Virus record (IMG/VR): IMGVR_UViG_3300044634_004833 | Span: 90,942 to 154,941 of that record | Source: a virus | Reading direction: 5' to 3' (one strand) | DNA length: 64,000 bases | Part shown: piece after piece, positions 28,365-62,799 of the stretch | Numbering within the stretch: the stretch's first letter is position 1 | How the letters are laid out: each line of letters opens with the position of its first letter | Notes under the pieces: generated by a model | Databases searched by the model: none | Told to the model about the DNA's origin: nothing | What the model saw: only the letters and a program-made list of their open reading frames with translations | Made by a program: the position numbers and the translations under genes

Positions 28365-31300
28365 ATGGACTACAAATTTGAATTGCCAAAACAAGCACCT
28401 AATGTTGATTTGGATCCTATTAAAATTAATGGTAAATCATTACAAATTACTGGATACATAGAAACTGTAGATCCATTTGGAAATGTAAAAATATCAGTGC
28501 CCAAAGACGGCCAAAGATTTAACGATACACCACAGAATTTGGCGGATGTAATGGGAGCAATAAATCCCACTCCAACACATTATATTCTTTATAATGGTAC
28601 TCAAGGTTTGACAGATTATCAGCTTCAATTAGGAACAGAACAATCTTATGCATATGATCCTGTAATTACATATACAACAGATGGGGATTATAAAGTAAAA
28701 GTTATAACATGTGCAGATGCAGAAGGAATTAATAAAATAATATATAATAGTTCATTAGTACCAGAAAAGTGTTTGTTTGATGCTCTGTCAGATGTAGTAG
28801 ATTTAGGATACAAATTAAGACTTATGAGTCCAGATTATGCTTCTGCAGGAGCAACAACCGAACTTATATGTGAATATTTTCTTTTTAGAGGATATTCTTT
28901 TTCTGTTAAAAGTACAGTTGACGTATGGATTACCACTAGTCAGTTTGCCAGTTCTTGGATTTATCCTGGCCCCAACCCAAATAAACCTACAAGATTTTTA
29001 AACAAACCAAGTGTTTTGCCACAAGGCGCAACAACTACTACTACCACAACAACTACTTCTACCACTACTACTACAACATCGGCTCCAATTTCAACCTCAA
29101 CTACAACGACAGCGGCTCCGGGTGCTGGTGGCAGACTGCCTCTTCCCGGCAATTCTTTGTCTTATAACGGTGTCACTCTTACAGGCTCTGGTTCAGGTAG
29201 TAATTATGCAGCACCATTTACCTATTGTTCAGTATCCATGCCTGCTAATTCTATGATTCTTGGAAATGCTGGAAGTGGTACTTATACGCTTACATTCTCT
29301 TTGCCTGTAAACAATATTCAAATTTTAGGATCAGGTCAAAATTTTGGAGAAACCTTTACATTTTCAGTCAATAATGGCACATTAACCACAAGTCTAATGC
29401 CAGGAATTGGTTGCAATGCCACTTTAACTGGAAATACTGTAGGTAATTCCAGCGTTGGTTCTTTTGGAGCAACGCTAGCATCAACATCAGATTACACATC
29501 TTTGTCTATAACATTCCCCGGCGGTGGCGGCGGCACATTGTTCTCAGTTATAGAAAGCTCTGTTGTTTCTGGAGCAACCACAACTACACCTGTTCCAACA
29601 ACCACAACAACTACTACACCTGCGCCTACTACAACTACACCTGTTCCAACAACCACTACCACTCCAGCACCTGCAGTTTCTACTGGATTGCCATTAATTG
29701 GAACCTCTTCTGTTATAAATGGTGTTACATTAACGGCATCTGGCGTTGGAACTTCTTATTCAAGCCCTTGGTCAAGCTGCTCTCCTCCTATCTCAATTAC
29801 TGCACCTTGCTTGTTCTTGGGAAGAGCCATTGGAACATATACTGTTTCATTTGATTCATTACAGAATGATATAGTAATTTTTGCAAACGCTAGTGACACA
29901 GGAGAAAGCTTTGACTTTGGAGTAGACTCAGGAACACTAAGCATTAGTGTTGTTCAAAGCTGCGGAGTAACAGTATCTGGAACAACAGTTTCTAGCGTTG
30001 GAGCAAATGTTGGATGGGTCATAAGGCTCACAAGCACAACTCCATACTCTCAAATAACAATATATTCTGGTGCTGTAACATCTGGAAGCCTTTTTGGAAT
30101 TTATGCAAGCTCAATAGTTCCAGGTGCAGTAGTAACAACTACAACGCCAATTCCAACAACTACTACAACCACAACTACTACAACCACTCCCGAACCAACA
30201 ACAACCACCACTACTACTACACCTGCTCCAACGACCACTACAACCACAACTACTACAACTACAACCACTACAACTACAACCACTACAACAACTACAACTA
30301 CGCCCGCACCAGACCAAGCATATTCATTGTTTGGATGGGGAGAAGGTAACCTAGGAAATAATCGTTCTGCTGGAGCCCAATCGCCAACTCAAACAGTTTC
30401 TGGCGGAACAAATTGGGGAACACCTCCAAAATGCTCTTATGCACAACACTATGCCATATTGAAGAAGGATGCAACACTCTGGGCATGGGGCACTAATAGT
30501 GCAGGAGAACTTGGTAATAACACAACAACAAATAGAAGTTCTCCTATTCAAATTGCTGCCCCCGCAGGAGTTACATGGAATGCTGTAAATATGGGATATC
30601 AAACCACATTTGTTATAGACACAACCGGCGCATTGTGGGGATGGGGCAAAAATAACTTTGGGCAGTTGGGCATTAGCACTACAATAAATGTAAGCTCTCC
30701 TGTTCAGATCAGCGCCGATACAACATGGAGTTCTATTGTAGCAGGCAATTTTGCTACTTATGCAATTAAGAAAAATGGAACTTTATGGGCATTTGGATAC
30801 AATGTACAAGGACAAATCGGAGATGGAACAATAGTAAACAAAAGCAGCCCAGTTCAAATTGGCTCTGACACCACATGGTCACAAATAACTGCTGGTCAAG
30901 GACACGCATTATCAATTAAATCAGATGGAACTTTGTGGGCATGGGGAGCAGGGTCTAACGGTTCCCTTGGAAATGGTACAATAACACATAGAAGTAGCCC
31001 CATTCAAATAGGAACTGATAATACATGGTCTTTAATACAATCAACTGGATTTGGCGGAGCAGCTTTGAAAACAGATGGAAGCCTATGGTGCTGGGGCGGA
31101 AATACAAATGGCGCTCTAGGAGATGGAACAACAGTTCACAGAAGTAGCCCAATTCAAATAGGATCTGATACAAATTGGACAGATATCGCTGGAGGACAGT
31201 ATTCTGTAGTTGCACTAAAATCAGACAAATCCTTATGGCATTGGGGCTATGGTGGAGCAATGGGCATAGGTGTAAACTCTGCCAGAAGCTCTCCAGTTCA

Positions 31301-32621
31301 GACATTAAAAGCAGATACCTTATGGATTTCAATAGGCAGCAGCTTAAGAAACTTCTTCTGCATTAGAGGTGTTACAACAACAACGACAACTACAACACCA
31401 GCACCTACAACTACAACACCAGCACCTACAACTACAACACCAGCACCTACAACGACAACGACAACACCAGCACCTACAACGACAACACCAGCACCTACAA
31501 CGACAACACCAGCACCTACAACTACAACACCAGCACCTACAACTACAACACCAGCACCTACAACCACTCCTGCTCCAGCAGGAGGAAGTGGATTGTGGGC
31601 ATGGGGATTCAACTCTTATGGAATGCTTGGAGATGGGACAGTTGAAAGCAGAAGTAGCCCAGTGCAAATGTTGACATCATCATTTAATGATATTGCAGAT
31701 GGCGGATACGCTCAACATGGTGCTGCTGTAAAAGCAGATGGAACTCTTTGGATATGGGGCAACAATAGCTACGGACAGCTAGGGGATGGAACAACTGTGG
31801 CTAAAAGTTCGCCTACTCAAGTTGGAACTGAAAATACTTGGGATGAAGTAGTCAAGGGACTCAACACCGCTGCTTCTAAAACAGATGGAAGTTTATGGGG
31901 CTGGGGAGGAAACGCATATGGACAACTTGGCATAGGAACAAAAATAAATGTTAGCTCTCCTGTTCAAATTATGGGCGCATCATCTGGATATTATGATATT
32001 ACAATATCTGCTGCAAATGCAGCCGTAATAAAGAAAGATGGGACTTTATGGGCATGGGGACCTAACAATGATGGAATTTTGGGCACTAATGATAAAATAC
32101 ACAGATCGTCTCCAGTACAAATAGGTTCTGATACAACATGGAGAAATGTTACTTTTACAGCCTACTCTATGTGTGCAATTAAGTCTGATGGCACTTTATG
32201 GAGCTGTGGAAACGGATACAGCGGAGTAACAGGTTTAAATAATACTTTAAACTATAGCTCCCCAACTCAAATAGGAACAGATAATACATGGAGCTATGTT
32301 TTTGCAACCTACTTATTAGTACACGCAATAAAGAACGATGGTTCTCTATGGGTTTGGGGACAAGGAGGAGCATCAGAATCTGGAATTACTCGTAGCAGTC
32401 CAACTCAGGTAATAACAGGAAAATCATTCAGCAAAGTTGTTTCTGGTATGGCTACCTCTGCTGGATTGACTACTGATGGAAAACTATGGGCATGGGGACA
32501 AAATGCATATGGCTCAATGGGAGAGGCCGCATCTAGTGCCAGTCCAGTAATGTTATTCTCCGATACCACATGGTCTGATATTTCAGCAATCGCTGCTGGA
32601 TTCCACGCCACAAAAGCATAG
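28365..32621 (+). CDS. putative virion fibre/adhesin: two RCC1 beta-propellers, two beta-rich repeats, mucin-like Thr/Pro linkers
   Basis: Repeated LW.WG.N..GQLG...SSP.QIG.D..W; duplicated LPL.G....NGVTLT.SG domain; poly-Thr tracts. Confidence 0.85.
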   Translation: MDYKFELPKQAPNVDLDPIKINGKSLQITGYIETVDPFGNVKISVPKDGQRFNDTPQNLADVMGAINPTPTHYILYNGTQGLTDYQLQLGTEQSYAYDPVITYTTDGDYKVKVITCADAEGINKIIYNSSLVPEKCLFDALSDVVDLGYKLRLMSPDYASAGATTELICEYFLFRGYSFSVKSTVDVWITTSQFASSWIYPGPNPNKPTRFLNKPSVLPQGATTTTTTTTTSTTTTTTSAPISTSTTTTAAPGAGGRLPLPGNSLSYNGVTLTGSGSGSNYAAPFTYCSVSMPANSMILGNAGSGTYTLTFSLPVNNIQILGSGQNFGETFTFSVNNGTLTTSLMPGIGCNATLTGNTVGNSSVGSFGATLASTSDYTSLSITFPGGGGGTLFSVIESSVVSGATTTTPVPTTTTTTTPAPTTTTPVPTTTTTPAPAVSTGLPLIGTSSVINGVTLTASGVGTSYSSPWSSCSPPISITAPCLFLGRAIGTYTVSFDSLQNDIVIFANASDTGESFDFGVDSGTLSISVVQSCGVTVSGTTVSSVGANVGWVIRLTSTTPYSQITIYSGAVTSGSLFGIYASSIVPGAVVTTTTPIPTTTTTTTTTTTPEPTTTTTTTTPAPTTTTTTTTTTTTTTTTTTTTTTTTPAPDQAYSLFGWGEGNLGNNRSAGAQSPTQTVSGGTNWGTPPKCSYAQHYAILKKDATLWAWGTNSAGELGNNTTTNRSSPIQIAAPAGVTWNAVNMGYQTTFVIDTTGALWGWGKNNFGQLGISTTINVSSPVQISADTTWSSIVAGNFATYAIKKNGTLWAFGYNVQGQIGDGTIVNKSSPVQIGSDTTWSQITAGQGHALSIKSDGTLWAWGAGSNGSLGNGTITHRSSPIQIGTDNTWSLIQSTGFGGAALKTDGSLWCWGGNTNGALGDGTTVHRSSPIQIGSDTNWTDIAGGQYSVVALKSDKSLWHWGYGGAMGIGVNSARSSPVQTLKADTLWISIGSSLRNFFCIRGVTTTTTTTTPAPTTTTPAPTTTTPAPTTTTTTPAPTTTTPAPTTTTPAPTTTTPAPTTTTPAPTTTPAPAGGSGLWAWGFNSYGMLGDGTVESRSSPVQMLTSSFNDIADGGYAQHGAAVKADGTLWIWGNNSYGQLGDGTTVAKSSPTQVGTENTWDEVVKGLNTAASKTDGSLWGWGGNAYGQLGIGTKINVSSPVQIMGASSGYYDITISAANAAVIKKDGTLWAWGPNNDGILGTNDKIHRSSPVQIGSDTTWRNVTFTAYSMCAIKSDGTLWSCGNGYSGVTGLNNTLNYSSPTQIGTDNTWSYVFATYLLVHAIKNDGSLWVWGQGGASESGITRSSPTQVITGKSFSKVVSGMATSAGLTTDGKLWAWGQNAYGSMGEAASSASPVMLFSDTTWSDISAIAAGFHATKA
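31372..31578 (+). repeat. 21 bp tandem repeat encoding PAPTTTT
   Basis: CCAGCACCTACAAC(T/G)ACAACA, about 8-9 copies. Confidence 0.92.
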
Positions 32622-32628
32622 CCTTTAG

Positions 32629-32657
32629 CTCCCGCATGAAATTCATGCGGGAGTTTT
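32629..32657 (+). terminator. rho-independent terminator
   Basis: CTCCCGCATGAA-a-TTCATGCGGGAG-TTTT. Confidence 0.8.
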
Positions 32658-32678
32658 AGTTACAATTTTTTTGATTTG

Positions 32679-32688
32679 CCCCTATCAT
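32679..32688 (+). promoter_or_regulatory. class B promoter variant CCCCTATCAT
   Basis: Before SD AGGAG and ATG 32708. Confidence 0.55.
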
Positions 32689-32707
32689 TTGGGCAGGAGA
32701 TCAAAAC

Positions 32708-33304
32708 ATGCTTAGAACTACGATTCTTTCTTTTTTAGTGTTTTTAATTATGGTTAGCGATCCAACCATTGCGAAAGCTGGTTGAGGCGCACCAAGCTTG
32801 CCCCGGTCGGGGTATATGCCAATTCAAATCACACAAACTCAATTAGAAATACTTGAAATAGATAGAAAAGCAAGAGCTATTGCTCATACTATGTACGCTG
32901 AAAACAATGAAGAACAAATAGAACTATCTGTCAAAAGCTCCGATAAAATACATCGTATTGCTGCCGTTTTTTATTATCAACAAAAAATGGACCCTAATCC
33001 ATGTTTGCTTAATCTTCTTGCAGATCAAGATCCATTAGTTGTTGAAGCAGCACATATCGCATGTATTATTATTGCAAACAATAAAAAACACAAAGATTTT
33101 AACAAGTATCCCAAAGGACATTTAATCGACTTTGGACCTTGGTTAAATAGACTCAACAACCAAAGCGAAGGCACAGGAGCCAGACAAGAAGCTATTGATA
33201 TGTGGCAATCCCACTTTGATAAAATACTTAAAAACAAAAAAGAAATTGAAGATAAGCCAAAAGAAGAAAAGAAAAGTGTAGAAGAAATTCTTAGAATTAA
33301 ATGA
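32708..33304 (+). CDS. candidate selenoprotein: signal peptide, in-frame TGA at codon 26, HEAT-like domain
   Basis: ATG 32708 is in frame with ORF 32798..33304; TGA at 32783-85; LLADQDPLVVEAA..DFGP..RQEAIDMW. Confidence 0.65.
32786..32820 (+). promoter_or_regulatory. putative bacterial SECIS element
   Basis: TGCCCC-GGTC-GGGGTA hairpin, apical loop 20 nt after TGA; lower stem GGCG/TGCC. Confidence 0.6.
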
Positions 33305-33307
33305 AGA

Positions 33308-33345
33308 CAAAAAAGTACCCCGGTGTTAACCGGGGTACTTTTTTG
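33308..33345. terminator. bidirectional terminator between convergent genes
   Basis: CAAAAAAGTACCCCGGT-gtta-ACCGGGGTACTTTTTTG. Confidence 0.9.
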
Positions 33346-33351
33346 TTGCGA

Positions 33352-34071
33352 TCAAGGACCTGTTTTAATTACTCCCTTTGTTGATTCTAAGCCATCTATG
33401 TTTAAATCCATAAATAAATTATCTTTAGAAAATTTAGCAACTTTAATTTGCTTTTGGCCATTTACATATGAAACATAACTTGTAAGTTGTATGGAATTTC
33501 CATTTTGATCCAAACTTGTATCTAATCCCATAGGCATTCCCTCATAGCCTCTTCCATTAGCTATTTGGCTTGAACTAAGACCAGCTTGTGTTTTTAAACC
33601 ACCAGCCTTGGGAACACACATTCCTGGCATTTTCTGACCTACAAATGTGCCAACAAATGGTTCTATTGAAGTCCCGCCAGGAATCTGATCGTTAGCACCA
33701 GCATCTTGTGTAACATCAACTGTGGTAGGAGGAAGACATAAACAATCACCACAATTTGCATCACAATTCCAATCAGATCCACTCCATGTGCATGTGCATG
33801 TGCCTTTGCAAGGAGGAGAATTAGTTAAATAAGGATAAGGAGGAGGTGGTGTAGTAATAACTCCCGGTGTTGTAGGTGGCGTAGTTGTTACCATAGGTGG
33901 CGTAGTTGTCACCATAGGAGGTGTTGTTGTCACCATAGGTGTTGTTGTTGGAGCCATAGGTGTTGTTGTTGGAGCCGCCGTTGTTCCAAGAGGAGGCGAA
34001 GTTGTTGGAGCATCTGTTGTGCCTCCACCTGGACCTACTGTTGTTACTGCTTGCCCGTGAACATAACTCAT
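33352..34071 (-). CDS. Thr/Pro-rich protein with Cys-rich module, likely virion-associated
   Basis: TTTP(P)MV repeats; CKGTCTCTW..CDANCGDCLC; CATATATA upstream. Confidence 0.75.
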   Translation of the reverse strand: MSYVHGQAVTTVGPGGGTTDAPTTSPPLGTTAAPTTTPMAPTTTPMVTTTPPMVTTTPPMVTTTPPTTPGVITTPPPPYPYLTNSPPCKGTCTCTWSGSDWNCDANCGDCLCLPPTTVDVTQDAGANDQIPGGTSIEPFVGTFVGQKMPGMCVPKAGGLKTQAGLSSSQIANGRGYEGMPMGLDTSLDQNGNSIQLTSYVSYVNGQKQIKVAKFSKDNLFMDLNIDGLESTKGVIKTGP

Positions 34072-57615: not shown

Positions 57616-57663
57616 TGTGTGCCGGTGGTGTTTATTACTTTGTTGTTAAGGAGGGTTAATACT

Positions 57664-58767
57664 ATGGCTCGTACCAAATCTGCTTCTACTGTGTGGCTTG
57701 AGAATGTTTTGACTTCTAATCCTGATCTGCGTTTTGCAGAGGCAGTTGGCCATCCTGACTATGCCAGCAATGGCTTCAACTTCGATGCTGCGTATTTCAA
57801 CGCAATTAAGTGTCGATATAAGAAGTCCCTTACTGGGGCTGGTGTTGGTACTGGTGGGTCTGTTGCTGTTGTTTCTCCGTCTCAGACTTCCGTAACTGAT
57901 CGACAGAATTATGATTATGACTCTGATACAACAGAGATGATTCCATCTGTCGATCCGCACTATGTGCTGACTGGAGAGAACATTTCCTTCTTTGAATTGG
58001 TTCAGAAAATGTCTGATTCAAAGAATGTGAATGTGCGTCTGGTTGGGCCAGCTGGTTGTGGTAAGACTAGCTTTGCCAGCCAATATGCTGCAAAGTATAA
58101 CTTGCCTCTTATGGTTGTCAACTGTGCGAATGTGCGTGAACCAAGAGATTGGTTCGGCTATCGCAAGTTGGATCAAGATAAGAATCTTGTCTGGCATGAA
58201 AGTCTCTTTGTTAGGATGCTAGAGACTCCTAATGCTGTTATCGTGCTGGACGAAACGAATCGTTGTCCTATGCACACACTTAACACTTTGTATCCTCTGC
58301 TTGACCATCGTAGGTCTAGCTATCTTGAGGAGGCTAATCGTACTCTAACTGTTGCAGAAGGCGTTACCTTTTGGGCAGCTATGAACGAGGGCAATCAGTT
58401 TACTGGTACTACTCAGCTAGACGAGGCTTTTGCTGATCGTACTGGTCTGGTGCATGAGTGTAAGTTTCTTTCTCTAGAGGACGAGACACTTGTGTTGCAC
58501 AATCGTACTGGTCTTGATAAAGCAAACTCGTTAAAGCTAGTGGAGATTGCCGATCAAGTGCGTAAGAAAGCACTTATGGATAGTGGTGATAGCTTTAGCA
58601 AGCCTATCTCTACTCGTATGCTTGAGGAGGCTGCTGCTGCGTTTGTGATTGGGGGGCCTAATACTATGGTCTATACTCTGCTTAATCACTTTAGTTCAAG
58701 TGGTGGCACTACTAGCGAGCGTCATAACTTGAAGACTCTACTGACTGGTAAGTTTGGCCAGCTGTAA
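57664..58767 (+). CDS. MoxR/CbbQ/NirQ-type AAA+ ATPase (phage CobS-like)
   Basis: GPAGCGKTS, VLDETNR, AAMNEG, LDEAFADR, ISTR. Confidence 0.9.
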   Translation: MARTKSASTVWLENVLTSNPDLRFAEAVGHPDYASNGFNFDAAYFNAIKCRYKKSLTGAGVGTGGSVAVVSPSQTSVTDRQNYDYDSDTTEMIPSVDPHYVLTGENISFFELVQKMSDSKNVNVRLVGPAGCGKTSFASQYAAKYNLPLMVVNCANVREPRDWFGYRKLDQDKNLVWHESLFVRMLETPNAVIVLDETNRCPMHTLNTLYPLLDHRRSSYLEEANRTLTVAEGVTFWAAMNEGNQFTGTTQLDEAFADRTGLVHECKFLSLEDETLVLHNRTGLDKANSLKLVEIADQVRKKALMDSGDSFSKPISTRMLEEAAAAFVIGGPNTMVYTLLNHFSSSGGTTSERHNLKTLLTGKFGQL

Positions 58768-58788
58768 GGTTTTAGTTGTTTTTTCTGC

Positions 58789-58823
58789 CCCCTACCCATA
58801 TAACTTATGGGTAGGGGTTTTTT
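58789..58823 (+). terminator. rho-independent terminator
   Basis: CCCCTACCCATA-taact-TATGGGTAGGGG-T6. Confidence 0.88.
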
Positions 58824-58840
58824 CGTTGACGAAAACAACC

Positions 58841-58867
58841 CTGCGATAAAAAATAGATTATCTCTAG
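58841..58867 (+). promoter_or_regulatory. class A motif
   Basis: CTGCGATAA-N14-CTAG. Confidence 0.8.
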
Positions 58868-58906
58868 TGTGTGTGGTGGTAAGGTAACTTAAAGGAGGGC
58901 CAAAAA

Positions 58907-60991
58907 ATGAGCAATAATGATGATGGCTTGTTTGACTTTGACAATGAGGATTTGGATTTGGAGAAAGATTTGCGTGGCCCTTCTAAGTTTGATGCTTCAA
59001 GTATTCCAGATGACCACCCATATCTTCCACAGAATCAAAATAAGGCTCCGAAGACTTACGATGTTACCAACTGGCATGAAGGTCAGTTTGGTCAACGCAC
59101 TAGCTGGTACACTTCCTTCACTCCGATGAAGTCTACTTCAGAGTATCTCCGTAGTAGCAGCTATGGTAGCTATGGATATTATGATAACTATTCTTCTTAC
59201 AAGAAGAAAACTGATACTGAAGTTATTTTGCAAGAGCAATTGCATGAAGTTCTGAAAGAGCTTAACAAGACTATCAATCTTACCAGTAACTCTAATACTG
59301 GCAAAGAGGAAGTTCTTAATGTTAAGTATTCTAATGGCATGGTTGTTAATGATCTAATGTCTAACACTTTGTTTGTTTCTCCTAATGTTATGCTGGAGAA
59401 TGAAGAAAAATTAAAGAGTGGCGACACTTATTATGACTCTCTTGATGGTCTTAATGGTCAAGCTATGTTGTGTGCCTTTATGAAAAAGGGCATTCATGCT
59501 GATGCTAACATTCAGTACAAAGAGAGTGCGTCTTGGGCTACTCGTAATATCTTTATGTCAGATATTCAATCTACTGCTGCTGGTGAAGTGTTTAGCAAGT
59601 GGCCTGGCTTTATGAGCTATATCACACAACAGATGACTGTATTTGGTGTGCGTAAAGATGTAGTTCTCAATCGCTTTCGTCAGGAAGTTATTCTTCTTGA
59701 TGATCTAGTTGAGTGCCTTTGCTATAATCGTCTTGCACCAGATAAGATTGACTATAGTATGTTCGACGAAGAAATTGTTAAGAAGATGCTGCTTGCAGAT
59801 AAAGACTTCAACGATATGATGGATATTGATTGTGAGTCTGCTTTAAGATTCCAGAAAGCAATTCGCATCTATGAGAATGTTCGTGATATTCTCAATCTTA
59901 ATTCGATGGATTTGAATGCTAGGTTTAATGCTTCTGGTATGAGTGTTCCAGCAAAACCTACAGATGATAGTGTTGACGAATCACTTTCTGGCAAGAAAGA
60001 GATTAAAGATGAGCCTTCTGAATTGAAGCGAGACTTTACTGGCGACAATAGTTACAACAATCATAAAGAGATTGAAGGTGATATTGTCTCTGGTATTCTT
60101 GACCACAATAAGAAGATGAAAGAAAGACTGAAGGAGTTGGAAGATAAGTTGGCTAGTGATCTCAGTCAGATGGAGATTCTGAATGATGTTACTTACAAAA
60201 TGATGATTCCTCCAGTCAATAAGGAACAGATTGCTGATTATGATAACTATGTCCGTAGCAATCGTAAAGCTATCGACAGTATCAAAAATGGTATGATGTT
60301 CCATAACAATCATCCTAATGTCTTCAGTTATGGTTTGACTGATGGCGATATTGATGAACATGCTCTCTATAAGATTCACTTTGGAGAATGTCAGCGTATC
60401 TTTGAGCGCAAAGATATAATTGGTGATAAGAGCTATCATGTTACTTTGGTTATTGACCAATCTGGTAGCATGGGTGGAGGAAAGATTACTGAAGCTGCAA
60501 AGCTATGTATCTTGTTCTCTGAGGCTTTAAAGTATCTCAAAGCTACAGAAGTGTCTATCTATGGTTTTGAGACGCATGATATTCGCACTTGGGTCTATAA
60601 GGATAAGATTTATGATAAGACTAAGGCTTTGATTCATGCTAAAGAAGATGGTGGTACTGCAATGGGATACCATTTGGGTTCTATTGGTGATAAGGTACTC
60701 ACTCAGTATGGGGAGTTTGATAACAAGTTTATGTTTGTTATCTGTGATGGTGGCCCTACTCATGCACCTGAAGGTATGCACCCAAAACAGCATACTGCTA
60801 AGGTTATTCAGAAGTTGCGACAGAAAGGTATCAAAGTATATGGGATTGGTATCCTGAATGCTTTTGATGATTCTACTGGCAATGATATATTCGGTGAAGG
60901 AAACTTTACTGTAATCAATGATATTGCTGGTAGTCTTCCTGTCCTTTGCAATAGGATGCGTAAGTATCTGCAAAAGACTTCTAAGGCGTGA
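58907..60991 (+). CDS. VWA-domain protein (CobT-like MoxR partner)
   Basis: MIDAS motif IDQSGSM, GGT, ICDGGP, YGIGI. Confidence 0.88.
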   Translation: MSNNDDGLFDFDNEDLDLEKDLRGPSKFDASSIPDDHPYLPQNQNKAPKTYDVTNWHEGQFGQRTSWYTSFTPMKSTSEYLRSSSYGSYGYYDNYSSYKKKTDTEVILQEQLHEVLKELNKTINLTSNSNTGKEEVLNVKYSNGMVVNDLMSNTLFVSPNVMLENEEKLKSGDTYYDSLDGLNGQAMLCAFMKKGIHADANIQYKESASWATRNIFMSDIQSTAAGEVFSKWPGFMSYITQQMTVFGVRKDVVLNRFRQEVILLDDLVECLCYNRLAPDKIDYSMFDEEIVKKMLLADKDFNDMMDIDCESALRFQKAIRIYENVRDILNLNSMDLNARFNASGMSVPAKPTDDSVDESLSGKKEIKDEPSELKRDFTGDNSYNNHKEIEGDIVSGILDHNKKMKERLKELEDKLASDLSQMEILNDVTYKMMIPPVNKEQIADYDNYVRSNRKAIDSIKNGMMFHNNHPNVFSYGLTDGDIDEHALYKIHFGECQRIFERKDIIGDKSYHVTLVIDQSGSMGGGKITEAAKLCILFSEALKYLKATEVSIYGFETHDIRTWVYKDKIYDKTKALIHAKEDGGTAMGYHLGSIGDKVLTQYGEFDNKFMFVICDGGPTHAPEGMHPKQHTAKVIQKLRQKGIKVYGIGILNAFDDSTGNDIFGEGNFTVINDIAGSLPVLCNRMRKYLQKTSKA

Positions 60992-62707: not shown

Positions 62708-62717
62708 TGATTTAAAG

Positions 62718-62799
62718 AGCCACCGATTGGACTTGAACCAACAATGAGAAAACTCGCCGGTTTACAAAACCGGTCCCTTACCATTCGGGGCACGGTGGC
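62718..62799 (-). tRNA. tRNA-Thr(UGU) with long variable arm, CCA not encoded
   Basis: Acceptor GCCACCG/CGGTGGC; anticodon arm CCGGT-TTTGTAA-ACCGG; variable CGAGTTTTCTCATT; T arm GTTGG-TTCAAGT-CCAAT. Confidence 0.85.

Follow-up and report, generated by a model that had tools for sequence, protein, structure and literature searches.

Selenoprotein genes of the Escherichia coli fdhF type, which depend on SelB and a selenocysteine insertion sequence (SECIS), combine an in-frame UGA with a short intragenic hairpin, capped by a small apical loop that begins with GG or GU, in genomes where UGA otherwise serves as a normal stop codon. Among viruses, the only selenoproteins of which we found a description are the homologue of glutathione peroxidase 1 (GPx1) in Molluscum contagiosum virus and that of GPx4 in fowlpox virus (PMC1802603). 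Neither phages nor viruses are mentioned in a 2026 review of prokaryotic selenoproteomes (PMC13188914), and we found no published report of a bacteriophage selenoprotein in the literature searched. Here we analyse a gene at positions 32708-33304 of a 64,000-nucleotide stretch of viral DNA (the window), which forms the final 64 kb of the 154,941-bp IMG/VR record IMGVR_UViG_3300044634_004833 (CheckV completeness 31%, which implies a full genome of roughly 500 kb). An earlier reading of the window from its letters alone (the original prediction) had proposed that this gene encodes a phage selenoprotein and knew of no characterised one in a bacteriophage, in agreement with our literature search. 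On the comparative evidence set out below, we put the probability that the UGA at 32783-32785 is decoded as selenocysteine (Sec) at roughly 85%.

The locus shares with fdhF-type genes the in-frame UGA, the short intragenic hairpin with its G-G/U loop and the use of UGA as a normal stop elsewhere in the genome. It differs in lying on a phage genome on which, as far as it is sampled, no selB, selC or selD was found, in encoding a protein that belongs to no described selenoprotein family and for which no close Cys orthologues were found, and in the predicted place of the Sec, at position 2 of the mature chain of an exported protein rather than in the active site of a cytoplasmic oxidoreductase. 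Like the poxvirus GPx genes it is virus-encoded and would require the Sec insertion machinery of its host, and the fowlpox SECIS also lies within the coding region (PMC1802603). The poxvirus element, however, is a eukaryotic kink-turn bound by SBP2, in genes captured from host GPx, whereas the present one is of bacterial type and sits, in a tailed phage, in the gene of a predicted HEAT-repeat protein without known enzymatic relatives. What appears to be new is a protein family on phage genomes for which no close Cys form was found and whose putative Sec lies at the mature N terminus of an exported protein; the mechanism looks like that of fdhF.

The gene (32708-33304, + strand) is a single frame for a 198-residue precursor, running from the ATG at 32708 to the TGA at 33302-33304, with the following features:

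32695-32699 (+): Shine-Dalgarno (SD) sequence AGGAG, 8 nt upstream of the ATG at 32708.
32708-32779 (+): start codon and signal peptide (residues 1-24, ending A-K-A), with a predicted signal peptidase I cut before Gly25.
32783-32785 (+): in-frame UGA, the proposed Sec26, second residue of the predicted mature chain and part of the motif G-U-G-x-P; a homologous TGA is present in 19 of 19 lineages.
32799-32814 (+): SECIS-like hairpin with the 6-bp stem UGCCCC/GGGGUA and the loop GGUC at 32805-32808; 19 nt separate the UGA from the loop, and the free energy is -9.6 kcal/mol.
32780-33301 (+): predicted mature protein of 174 residues, a flexible Sec-bearing N-terminal tail followed by a helical domain, as judged from the predicted local distance difference test (pLDDT) values of an AlphaFold 2 (AF2) model.
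32837-33253 (+): HEAT-repeat-like α-helical core, residues about 44-182, from the AF2 model and from structural and profile matches.
33002-33004 (+): Cys99 codon TGT, invariant in the close Sec-bearing family; candidate partner of Sec26.
33302-33304 (+): true stop TGA, read from the sequence.

Beyond the TGA at 32783-32785 the frame continues for 172 more codons before the stop at 33302-33304. The downstream reading G-A-P-S-L-P-R-S-G-Y runs into a 168-codon open reading frame (ORF), for which translation table 11 gives the SD-less TTG at 32798 as the start. The elements on which the original prediction had built its case are all present in the sequence: the SD AGGAG, the ATG at 32708, a 24-residue peptide ending A-K-A followed by Gly and TGA, the continuity of that TGA with the 168-codon ORF from TTG 32798, and the hairpin TGCCCC-GGTC-GGGGTA at 32799-32814 with its loop at +20 to +23 after the TGA. 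As the sequence reads, 32708-33304 encodes one 198-residue precursor and not a 25-codon peptide plus a 168-codon ORF.

The strongest support comes from homologues. A word-indexed protein search returned 15 relatives and a full profile search of 1.84 billion representatives returned 39, and all close relatives are annotated as N-terminally truncated ORFs. We obtained the DNA of each lineage wherever possible and read it upstream in frame, which made 19 distinct lineages readable (the window, L010, L002, L017, L004/L013, L005, L011, L012, L008, L016, L018, L019, L009, L039, L038, L037, L051 and L052). A TGA occupies the homologous position in every one of them, across identities from 87% down to about 25-30%, GC contents of 33-69% and more than 15 independent assemblies, and none of the 19 has a sense codon, be it for Trp, Arg, Gly or another residue, at this site. 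The original prediction had hinged on homologues carrying a conserved TGA and hairpin, and not Trp, Arg or Gly; for the TGA this holds throughout, and a hairpin follows it in each lineage. The lineages also have a layout in common, with an SD-led ATG, a signal peptide of 20-40 residues with small residues at its end, a Gly and then the TGA, and most add G-x-P and a P-R/Q-S-G motif between the TGA and the helical core. SD-like purine runs precede the equivalent ATG in homologue loci as they do in the window. The residues flanking the site deviate in L012, with Cys directly after the UGA, and in L038, with Asn directly before it.

These lineages come from varied contexts. L038 lies on a T4-like contig with Gp23, and the L039 contig, which has a tubulin-like gene, may belong to a jumbo phage and is taken as such. 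L037 sits in a chromosomal neighbourhood with uroD, a ubiE-like gene, purM and a prepilin/HX9DG gene; its protein cluster carries Planctomycetota labels in NCBI, and the UGA is kept. BLASTN and TBLASTN searches of 50,697 GenBank phage records gave no match, and in IMG/VR neither the protein nor the alignment, used as queries, retrieved any relative beyond the record itself.

The codons around the TGA vary synonymously on both sides, with Ala as GCT, GCA, GCG or GCC and Gly as GGT or GGC before it, and Gly as GGC, GGT, GGG or GGA and Pro as CCA, CCC or CCT after it. The tail between the UGA and the core differs in length among lineages by whole codons and is free of stops. Together, these synonymous changes and the frame kept through the length changes indicate that the region around the UGA is translated through in one frame. 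Start codons downstream are not conserved: the first possible one lies from 4 to more than 25 codons past the UGA, sometimes within a conserved helix, and several lineages, L019 among them, have no ATG at all between the UGA and the core.

Relatives that lack the UGA are found only at a distance. In these, as with V-G-C-G in P0041/P0067, the mature chain has a Cys within its first 3-13 residues, where alignment of the tails is unreliable, and L050, the gene of the P0041/P0067 group, has no upstream TGA. This Cys pattern may be what a Sec/Cys exchange would look like, in tails that are not confidently alignable. As an observation in its own right, these distant UGA-less relatives (P0041, P0034, P0029, P0031, P0026, P0045 and the locus L050:5001-5684) follow their signal peptide with a Cys-rich tail that contains C-[STNV]-P-[ST]-R, the CxPxR recognition motif of sulfatases and of the formylglycine-generating enzyme, so that formylglycine may be formed at the Cys of this motif.

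The hairpin provides a second line of evidence. Bacterial SECIS elements have been summarized in a consensus with 3-9 nt in the loop, 4-16 bp in the stem, a G within the first two nucleotides of the loop, mostly with G or U next to it, a spacing of 16-37 nt and a minimum free energy of -7.5 kcal/mol or lower (PMC13188914). The window hairpin agrees with this consensus on every point (GGUC, 6 bp, 19 nt, -9.6 kcal/mol), in keeping with its earlier description as an fdhF-like SECIS, and so do the hairpins at 17 of the 19 loci, compared with 1.5% of the 5,489 TGA triplets in the genome. The codons that build the stem are the rarest or near-rarest of their synonymous sets in this genome of 33% GC (CCC 10%, CGG 1.9%, TCG 4.2% and GGG 7.9%), with a joint probability of 1.6e-6 given the peptide. 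When the loci were recoded synonymously as a control, an equally stable hairpin seldom arose (p 0.002-0.3 per locus; Fisher p = 1.3e-7 over 11 lineages).

Stem sequences are entirely different at the same distance from the UGA in L038, L051, L052, L009 and L008, and the GGUC loop is kept despite a changed stem in L038 (ACGCCUU/AAGGCGU) and L051 (CUUGCU/AGCAAG). Within the main group, the fifth and sixth pairs alternate between G-C, A-U, G-U and U-A. Tabulating the stems structurally by script, we found stem positions 1-6 paired in 93% of cells, against 71% in column shuffles, and none of 2,000 shuffles matched the observed value. MAFFT misaligned the hairpins, and RNAalifold on a gapless alignment recovered 3 pairs only, because loop length shifts the register. 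The inner C-G pairs, which overlap Pro/Gly codons, are uninformative when taken alone. The hairpin is selected as RNA.

Taken at face value, the locus would work as follows. Translation would start at ATG 32708, and the hairpin 19 nt past the UGA at 32783 (UGCCCC/GGGGUA, loop GGUC) would recruit host SelB with Sec-tRNA(Sec), so that Sec insertion and termination by release factor 2 would compete, as they do at fdhF-type genes of E. coli. The signal peptide would direct the chain to the Sec (general secretory) translocon, and signal peptidase I would cut after A-K-A to give a periplasmic or extracellular HEAT-repeat protein with the flexible N terminus Gly-Sec-Gly-x-Pro, whose selenol, probably together with the conserved Cys99, would be the reactive (redox or metal-binding) group.

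Several points weigh against Sec decoding. The case is comparative only. Two of the 19 loci, L008 and L037, fail the simple hairpin criteria, and the stem overlaps conserved Pro/Gly codons, so that conservation of pairing is partly confounded with that of the peptide. Rfam contains no matching SECIS model, giving chance hits only both at the gathering threshold and at E values up to 10. Bacterial SECIS elements differ widely between lineages, however, and the Rfam result weighs little for that reason. Recognition of SECIS elements by SelB is specific to lineages. No Cys-for-Sec form was found among close relatives in the 1.84 billion representatives searched by profile, and such a lack of a Cys orthologue in the close family is unusual for selenoproteins. 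Lastly, no tRNA-Sec, selB or selD was found on the 155-kb record, with its CheckV completeness of 31% (selA was not searched), and a 271-kb contig from a related phage gave no tRNA-Sec or selB match, its long tRNAs being tRNA-Leu and tRNA-Tyr.

The alternative that survives best, although we regard it as unlikely, is readthrough without Sec, in which a suppressor tRNA or near-cognate decoding inserts Trp, Cys, Arg or Gly and the hairpin merely stimulates the event. Phages that recode stop codons are known, readthrough would equally explain why the frame is conserved on both sides of the UGA, and the tRNA-Sec, selB and selD that we looked for were not found on the phage DNA. An ordinary residue, however, should alternate with its own codons over 19 lineages spanning 33-69% GC, which it never does, and neither the 155-kb record nor the homologue loci obtained contain a suppressor tRNA (anticodon UCA); these two observations together make reassignment or ordinary readthrough improbable. 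The position and size of the hairpin and its G-G/U loop are, moreover, those of SelB-binding elements (PMC13188914), and TGA serves this genome as a regular stop, with 42 of the 149 long ORFs, the selenoprotein candidate gene among them, ending in it. Coding coverage is 88% under table 11 compared with 85% when TGA is read as sense, as expected from the earlier claim that TGA is a true stop elsewhere in the window. On these figures we rejected genetic code 4 or 25, and genome-wide reassignment of TGA, or recoding of late phage genes, is further contradicted by the lack of TGG, GGN or TGY at the site in any lineage and of a suppressor tRNA.

Very unlikely, in our view, is an arrangement of two cistrons, with a 25-codon leader that ends at the UGA, a HEAT protein that starts at TTG 32798 or ATG 32816, and a hairpin that acts as a coupling or attenuation element by masking a GGGG SD-like run. 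Such a run does lie 3 nt upstream of ATG 32816 in the window, and gene callers annotate the downstream ORF only. Yet the arrangement would leave a lone signal peptide without a passenger and a downstream ORF without a signal peptide of its own. The downstream starts are not conserved, L019 having no ATG in the region, and the codons from the UGA to these starts change synonymously under constraint on the protein (G-x-P..P-R/Q-S-G) and stay in frame despite changes in length. We rejected this reading on its unconserved starts, its translated-through region and its passenger-less signal peptide.

The fate of the N terminus bears on a further alternative, which accepts Sec and changes its role. 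The window signal peptide has a basic n-region, a hydrophobic core (Kyte-Doolittle 3.27 over 9 residues), a Pro-containing c-region and small residues at -3 and -1; by rule-based inspection, this layout of an exported signal peptidase I substrate holds in 18 lineages, so that the A-K-A-terminated signal peptide of the original prediction fits a family-wide pattern. Cleavage by signal peptidase I after A-x-A is predicted to leave the mature N terminus Gly-Sec-Gly-x-Pro. If the Sec were instead the +1 residue of a lipobox (A-G-U), the chain would be cleaved by signal peptidase II on the N-terminal side of the Sec, and a diacylglyceryl group on its selenol would provide a selenoether anchor. Nearly all lineages do have Ala at -2 and Gly at -1 relative to the Sec, as in the canonical L-A-G-C lipobox, but position -3 is Lys, Glu, Tyr, Arg or Gly and never Leu, Val or Ile, L038 has Asn at -1, and between the hydrophobic core and the site lie 5-8 c-region residues, polar, charged and including Pro, an arrangement known from signal peptidase I substrates. 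On inspection the sequences do not conform to the lipobox pattern [LVI][ASTVI][GAS]C, and we consider a lipoprotein hardly probable. A pseudogene or a sequencing or assembly error, for which it could be said that one in-frame stop in one sequence looks like a nonsense mutation, is refuted by the recurrence of this TGA in 19 diverged lineages, which were assembled independently and whose frames are intact and under purifying selection on either side of it, and has next to no probability left.

Returning to Sec decoding, a second candidate site in the same phage may corroborate it. Scanning the genome for a TGA with a SECIS-like hairpin and open frames on both sides gave only two sites, the gene with the UGA at 32783 and a 47-codon ORF (L044:564-421, - strand; G000:C1 about 68263-68120) roughly 22.8 kb before the window start; other TGA-plus-hairpin sites were rejected on their noncoding-looking frames. 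The second ORF ends H-G-G-U-M-S-U, with two TGAs spaced like a CxxC, and is followed downstream by the hairpin AGCCCGC-AGUU-GUGGGCU, with a 7-bp stem and the loop AGUU. The 271-kb relative (L045) matches it at all 21 nt around the two TGAs, within surroundings of 76% identity, and the stem there has compensatory changes; past the second UGA, the short tail shows no conservation at the protein level.

As the phage fragment yielded no tRNA-Sec, selB or selD, the phage would depend on its host for Sec machinery, unless the unsampled two thirds of its genome supply the genes, and we infer the use of host SelA, SelB and tRNA-Sec. The sole clearly cellular family member (L037, Planctomycetota) keeps the UGA and a hairpin, which implies a Sec-decoding lineage, and selA, selB and selD are present in some Planctomycetes (PMC4807772). 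This suggests that the host may belong to Planctomycetota and makes host supply of the Sec genes plausible, as a lead and not a demonstration. The initiation factor 3 (IF3) of the phage, examined as a host clue, gave only phage-like or uninformative matches.

A host link through the metagenome-assembled genome (MAG) G001, which holds selB, tRNA-Sec and selD, was rejected, as the contigs with these genes have 70-74% GC and the phage contig about 31-36%. This MAG (CAYVOK01; loci L010 and L045-L049), a GTDB species representative labelled Acidimicrobiaceae, is chimeric: most loci read have 67-74% GC, the 271-kb phage contig is misbinned there, and two further contigs with T4-type Gp23 genes have 41-43% GC. 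In its high-GC actinobacterial part, the selD gene L040 (G001:C3:163152-164105, - strand) contains one in-frame TGA, and its SelD is probably itself a selenoprotein, judging from this codon.

The protein that follows the UGA is, according to structural modelling, a HEAT-repeat α-solenoid. The AF2 model, built from a 42-sequence alignment, is all-helical with a mean pLDDT of 86.2, mostly above 90 in the core and 60-70 over the first 40 residues. VIA-align places HEAT, ARM and alphaRep solenoids next to it at Z scores of 5-7.9, a range that does not discriminate among helical repeats, and Foldseek found nothing in the PDB at an E value of 0.001 or lower. At the family level, HEAT_2 (PF13646) matches 21 of the 42 members (best 2.2e-6) and HEAT (PF02985) matches 19 of 42, so that the HEAT-like character proposed at the outset is found in about half of the family by profile as well as in the all-helical solenoid of the model. 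The window protein has no Pfam hit on its own and no NCBIfam hit; it reaches HEAT below threshold, at E = 0.041 and 14.6 bits against a cut-off of 23.5.

It shares with HEAT_2 and HEAT proteins the helical hairpin repeat and the D-x-D-P-L-V-x-x-A-A signature, and differs from them in this subthreshold score, in its very small size, with two to three repeats and a long C-terminal helix, in its predicted secretion and in its N-terminal Sec tail. Its neighbours in the ESM Atlas are HEAT_2 clusters, most often from Planctomycetota, in which small HEAT proteins and cytochrome c-HEAT proteins are common. At the extreme C terminus (window 33272-33301), a motif (K)-S-V-x-E-I-L-G-[IV]-x is conserved across subfamilies (P0019, P0020, P0022, P0024, P0027, P0028, P0039 and P0044); it resembles the first helix of the J domain (Y-E-I-L-G-V) and may be a short docking motif.

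Cys99 forms an invariant column in the close-family alignments, is replaced by other residues in the distant UGA-less group and is absent from one Sec-bearing lineage, P0024/L052. Our working model is that the reactive group may be the N-terminal selenol of a periplasmic redox or metal-binding protein. A bolder version, doubtful but worth stating, would make the family an obligate selenoprotein of viruses and Planctomycetota-like hosts, in which the free Gly-Sec-Gly-x-Pro tail serves as a selenolate metal or redox hook, possibly closed by Cys99, that Cys cannot replace. The proposed hook can be likened to the N-terminal His-Cys-x-x-Pro-Cys hook of nickel superoxide dismutase, and a chemistry that Cys cannot provide would explain why no Cys orthologue occurs in 19 lineages. 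Were this so, each phage genome would hold at least two Sec genes, and the fitness of the phage would depend on the selenium status of the host and on its SelB.

If Sec decoding is true, a secreted selenoprotein family of large phages would show that phages exploit the selenocysteine-recoding apparatus of their hosts, and would add a new selenoprotein family with the Sec at an unusual place, the mature N terminus of an exported HEAT protein. Infection would be tied to selenium availability, and, since its expression would be confined to Sec-decoding bacteria, the gene would offer a simple marker of host range. Gene callers truncate every member of the family, and such genes would therefore be systematically missed in viromes.

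The gene is flanked by the following signals:

32629-32657 (+): intrinsic terminator-like hairpin and T-run, with the 11-bp stem CTCCCGCATGA / TCATGCGGGAG and the loop AAT, then TTTT; it closes the upstream RCC1-repeat gene.
32659-32688 (+): weak sigma-70-like promoter match GTTACA-18-TATCAT, with 9 of 12 matches.
33307-33346 (strand not assigned): strong bidirectional terminator hairpin of 18 pairs, free energy -30 kcal/mol, shared with the convergent gene 33352-34071.

With a terminator upstream (32629-32657) and another downstream (33307-33346), the gene looks like its own transcription unit. The promoter motif of the original prediction exists as the GTTACA-18-TATCAT site but is no better than chance, since shuffled sequence is expected to contain at least as many promoter-type sites as the region does. 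The 5' neighbour (28365-32621, +) encodes 1418 residues with many RCC1 repeats between long poly-Thr/Pro linkers and the 3' neighbour (33352-34071, -) a Thr/Pro-rich protein of 239 residues; both look like surface or fibre proteins.

Elsewhere, the window holds genes for helicases, methyltransferases and a VWA/CobT-like protein, and the record outside the window has IF3 and peptide deformylase genes. The 271-kb contig is a relative with about 76-83% identity over the two regions compared and 31-36% GC in the stretches read. A tRNA-Thr(UGU) at window 62717-62799 (- strand; also L047:41-122) is 82-83 nt long, about 10 nt over the normal length of tRNA-Thr, and is kept in the 271-kb relative, where it adjoins a tRNA-Tyr. 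In two high-GC lineages (L008:298-5453 and L011:384-5576), a conserved run of genes lies directly 5' of the selenoprotein gene and encodes a protein of about 505 residues, a tubulin-like protein (PF13809, shown in L011) and a VWA protein of about 680 residues; in the window, a VWA/CobT-like gene at 58907-60991 (within 57619-60991) lies 26 kb away instead.

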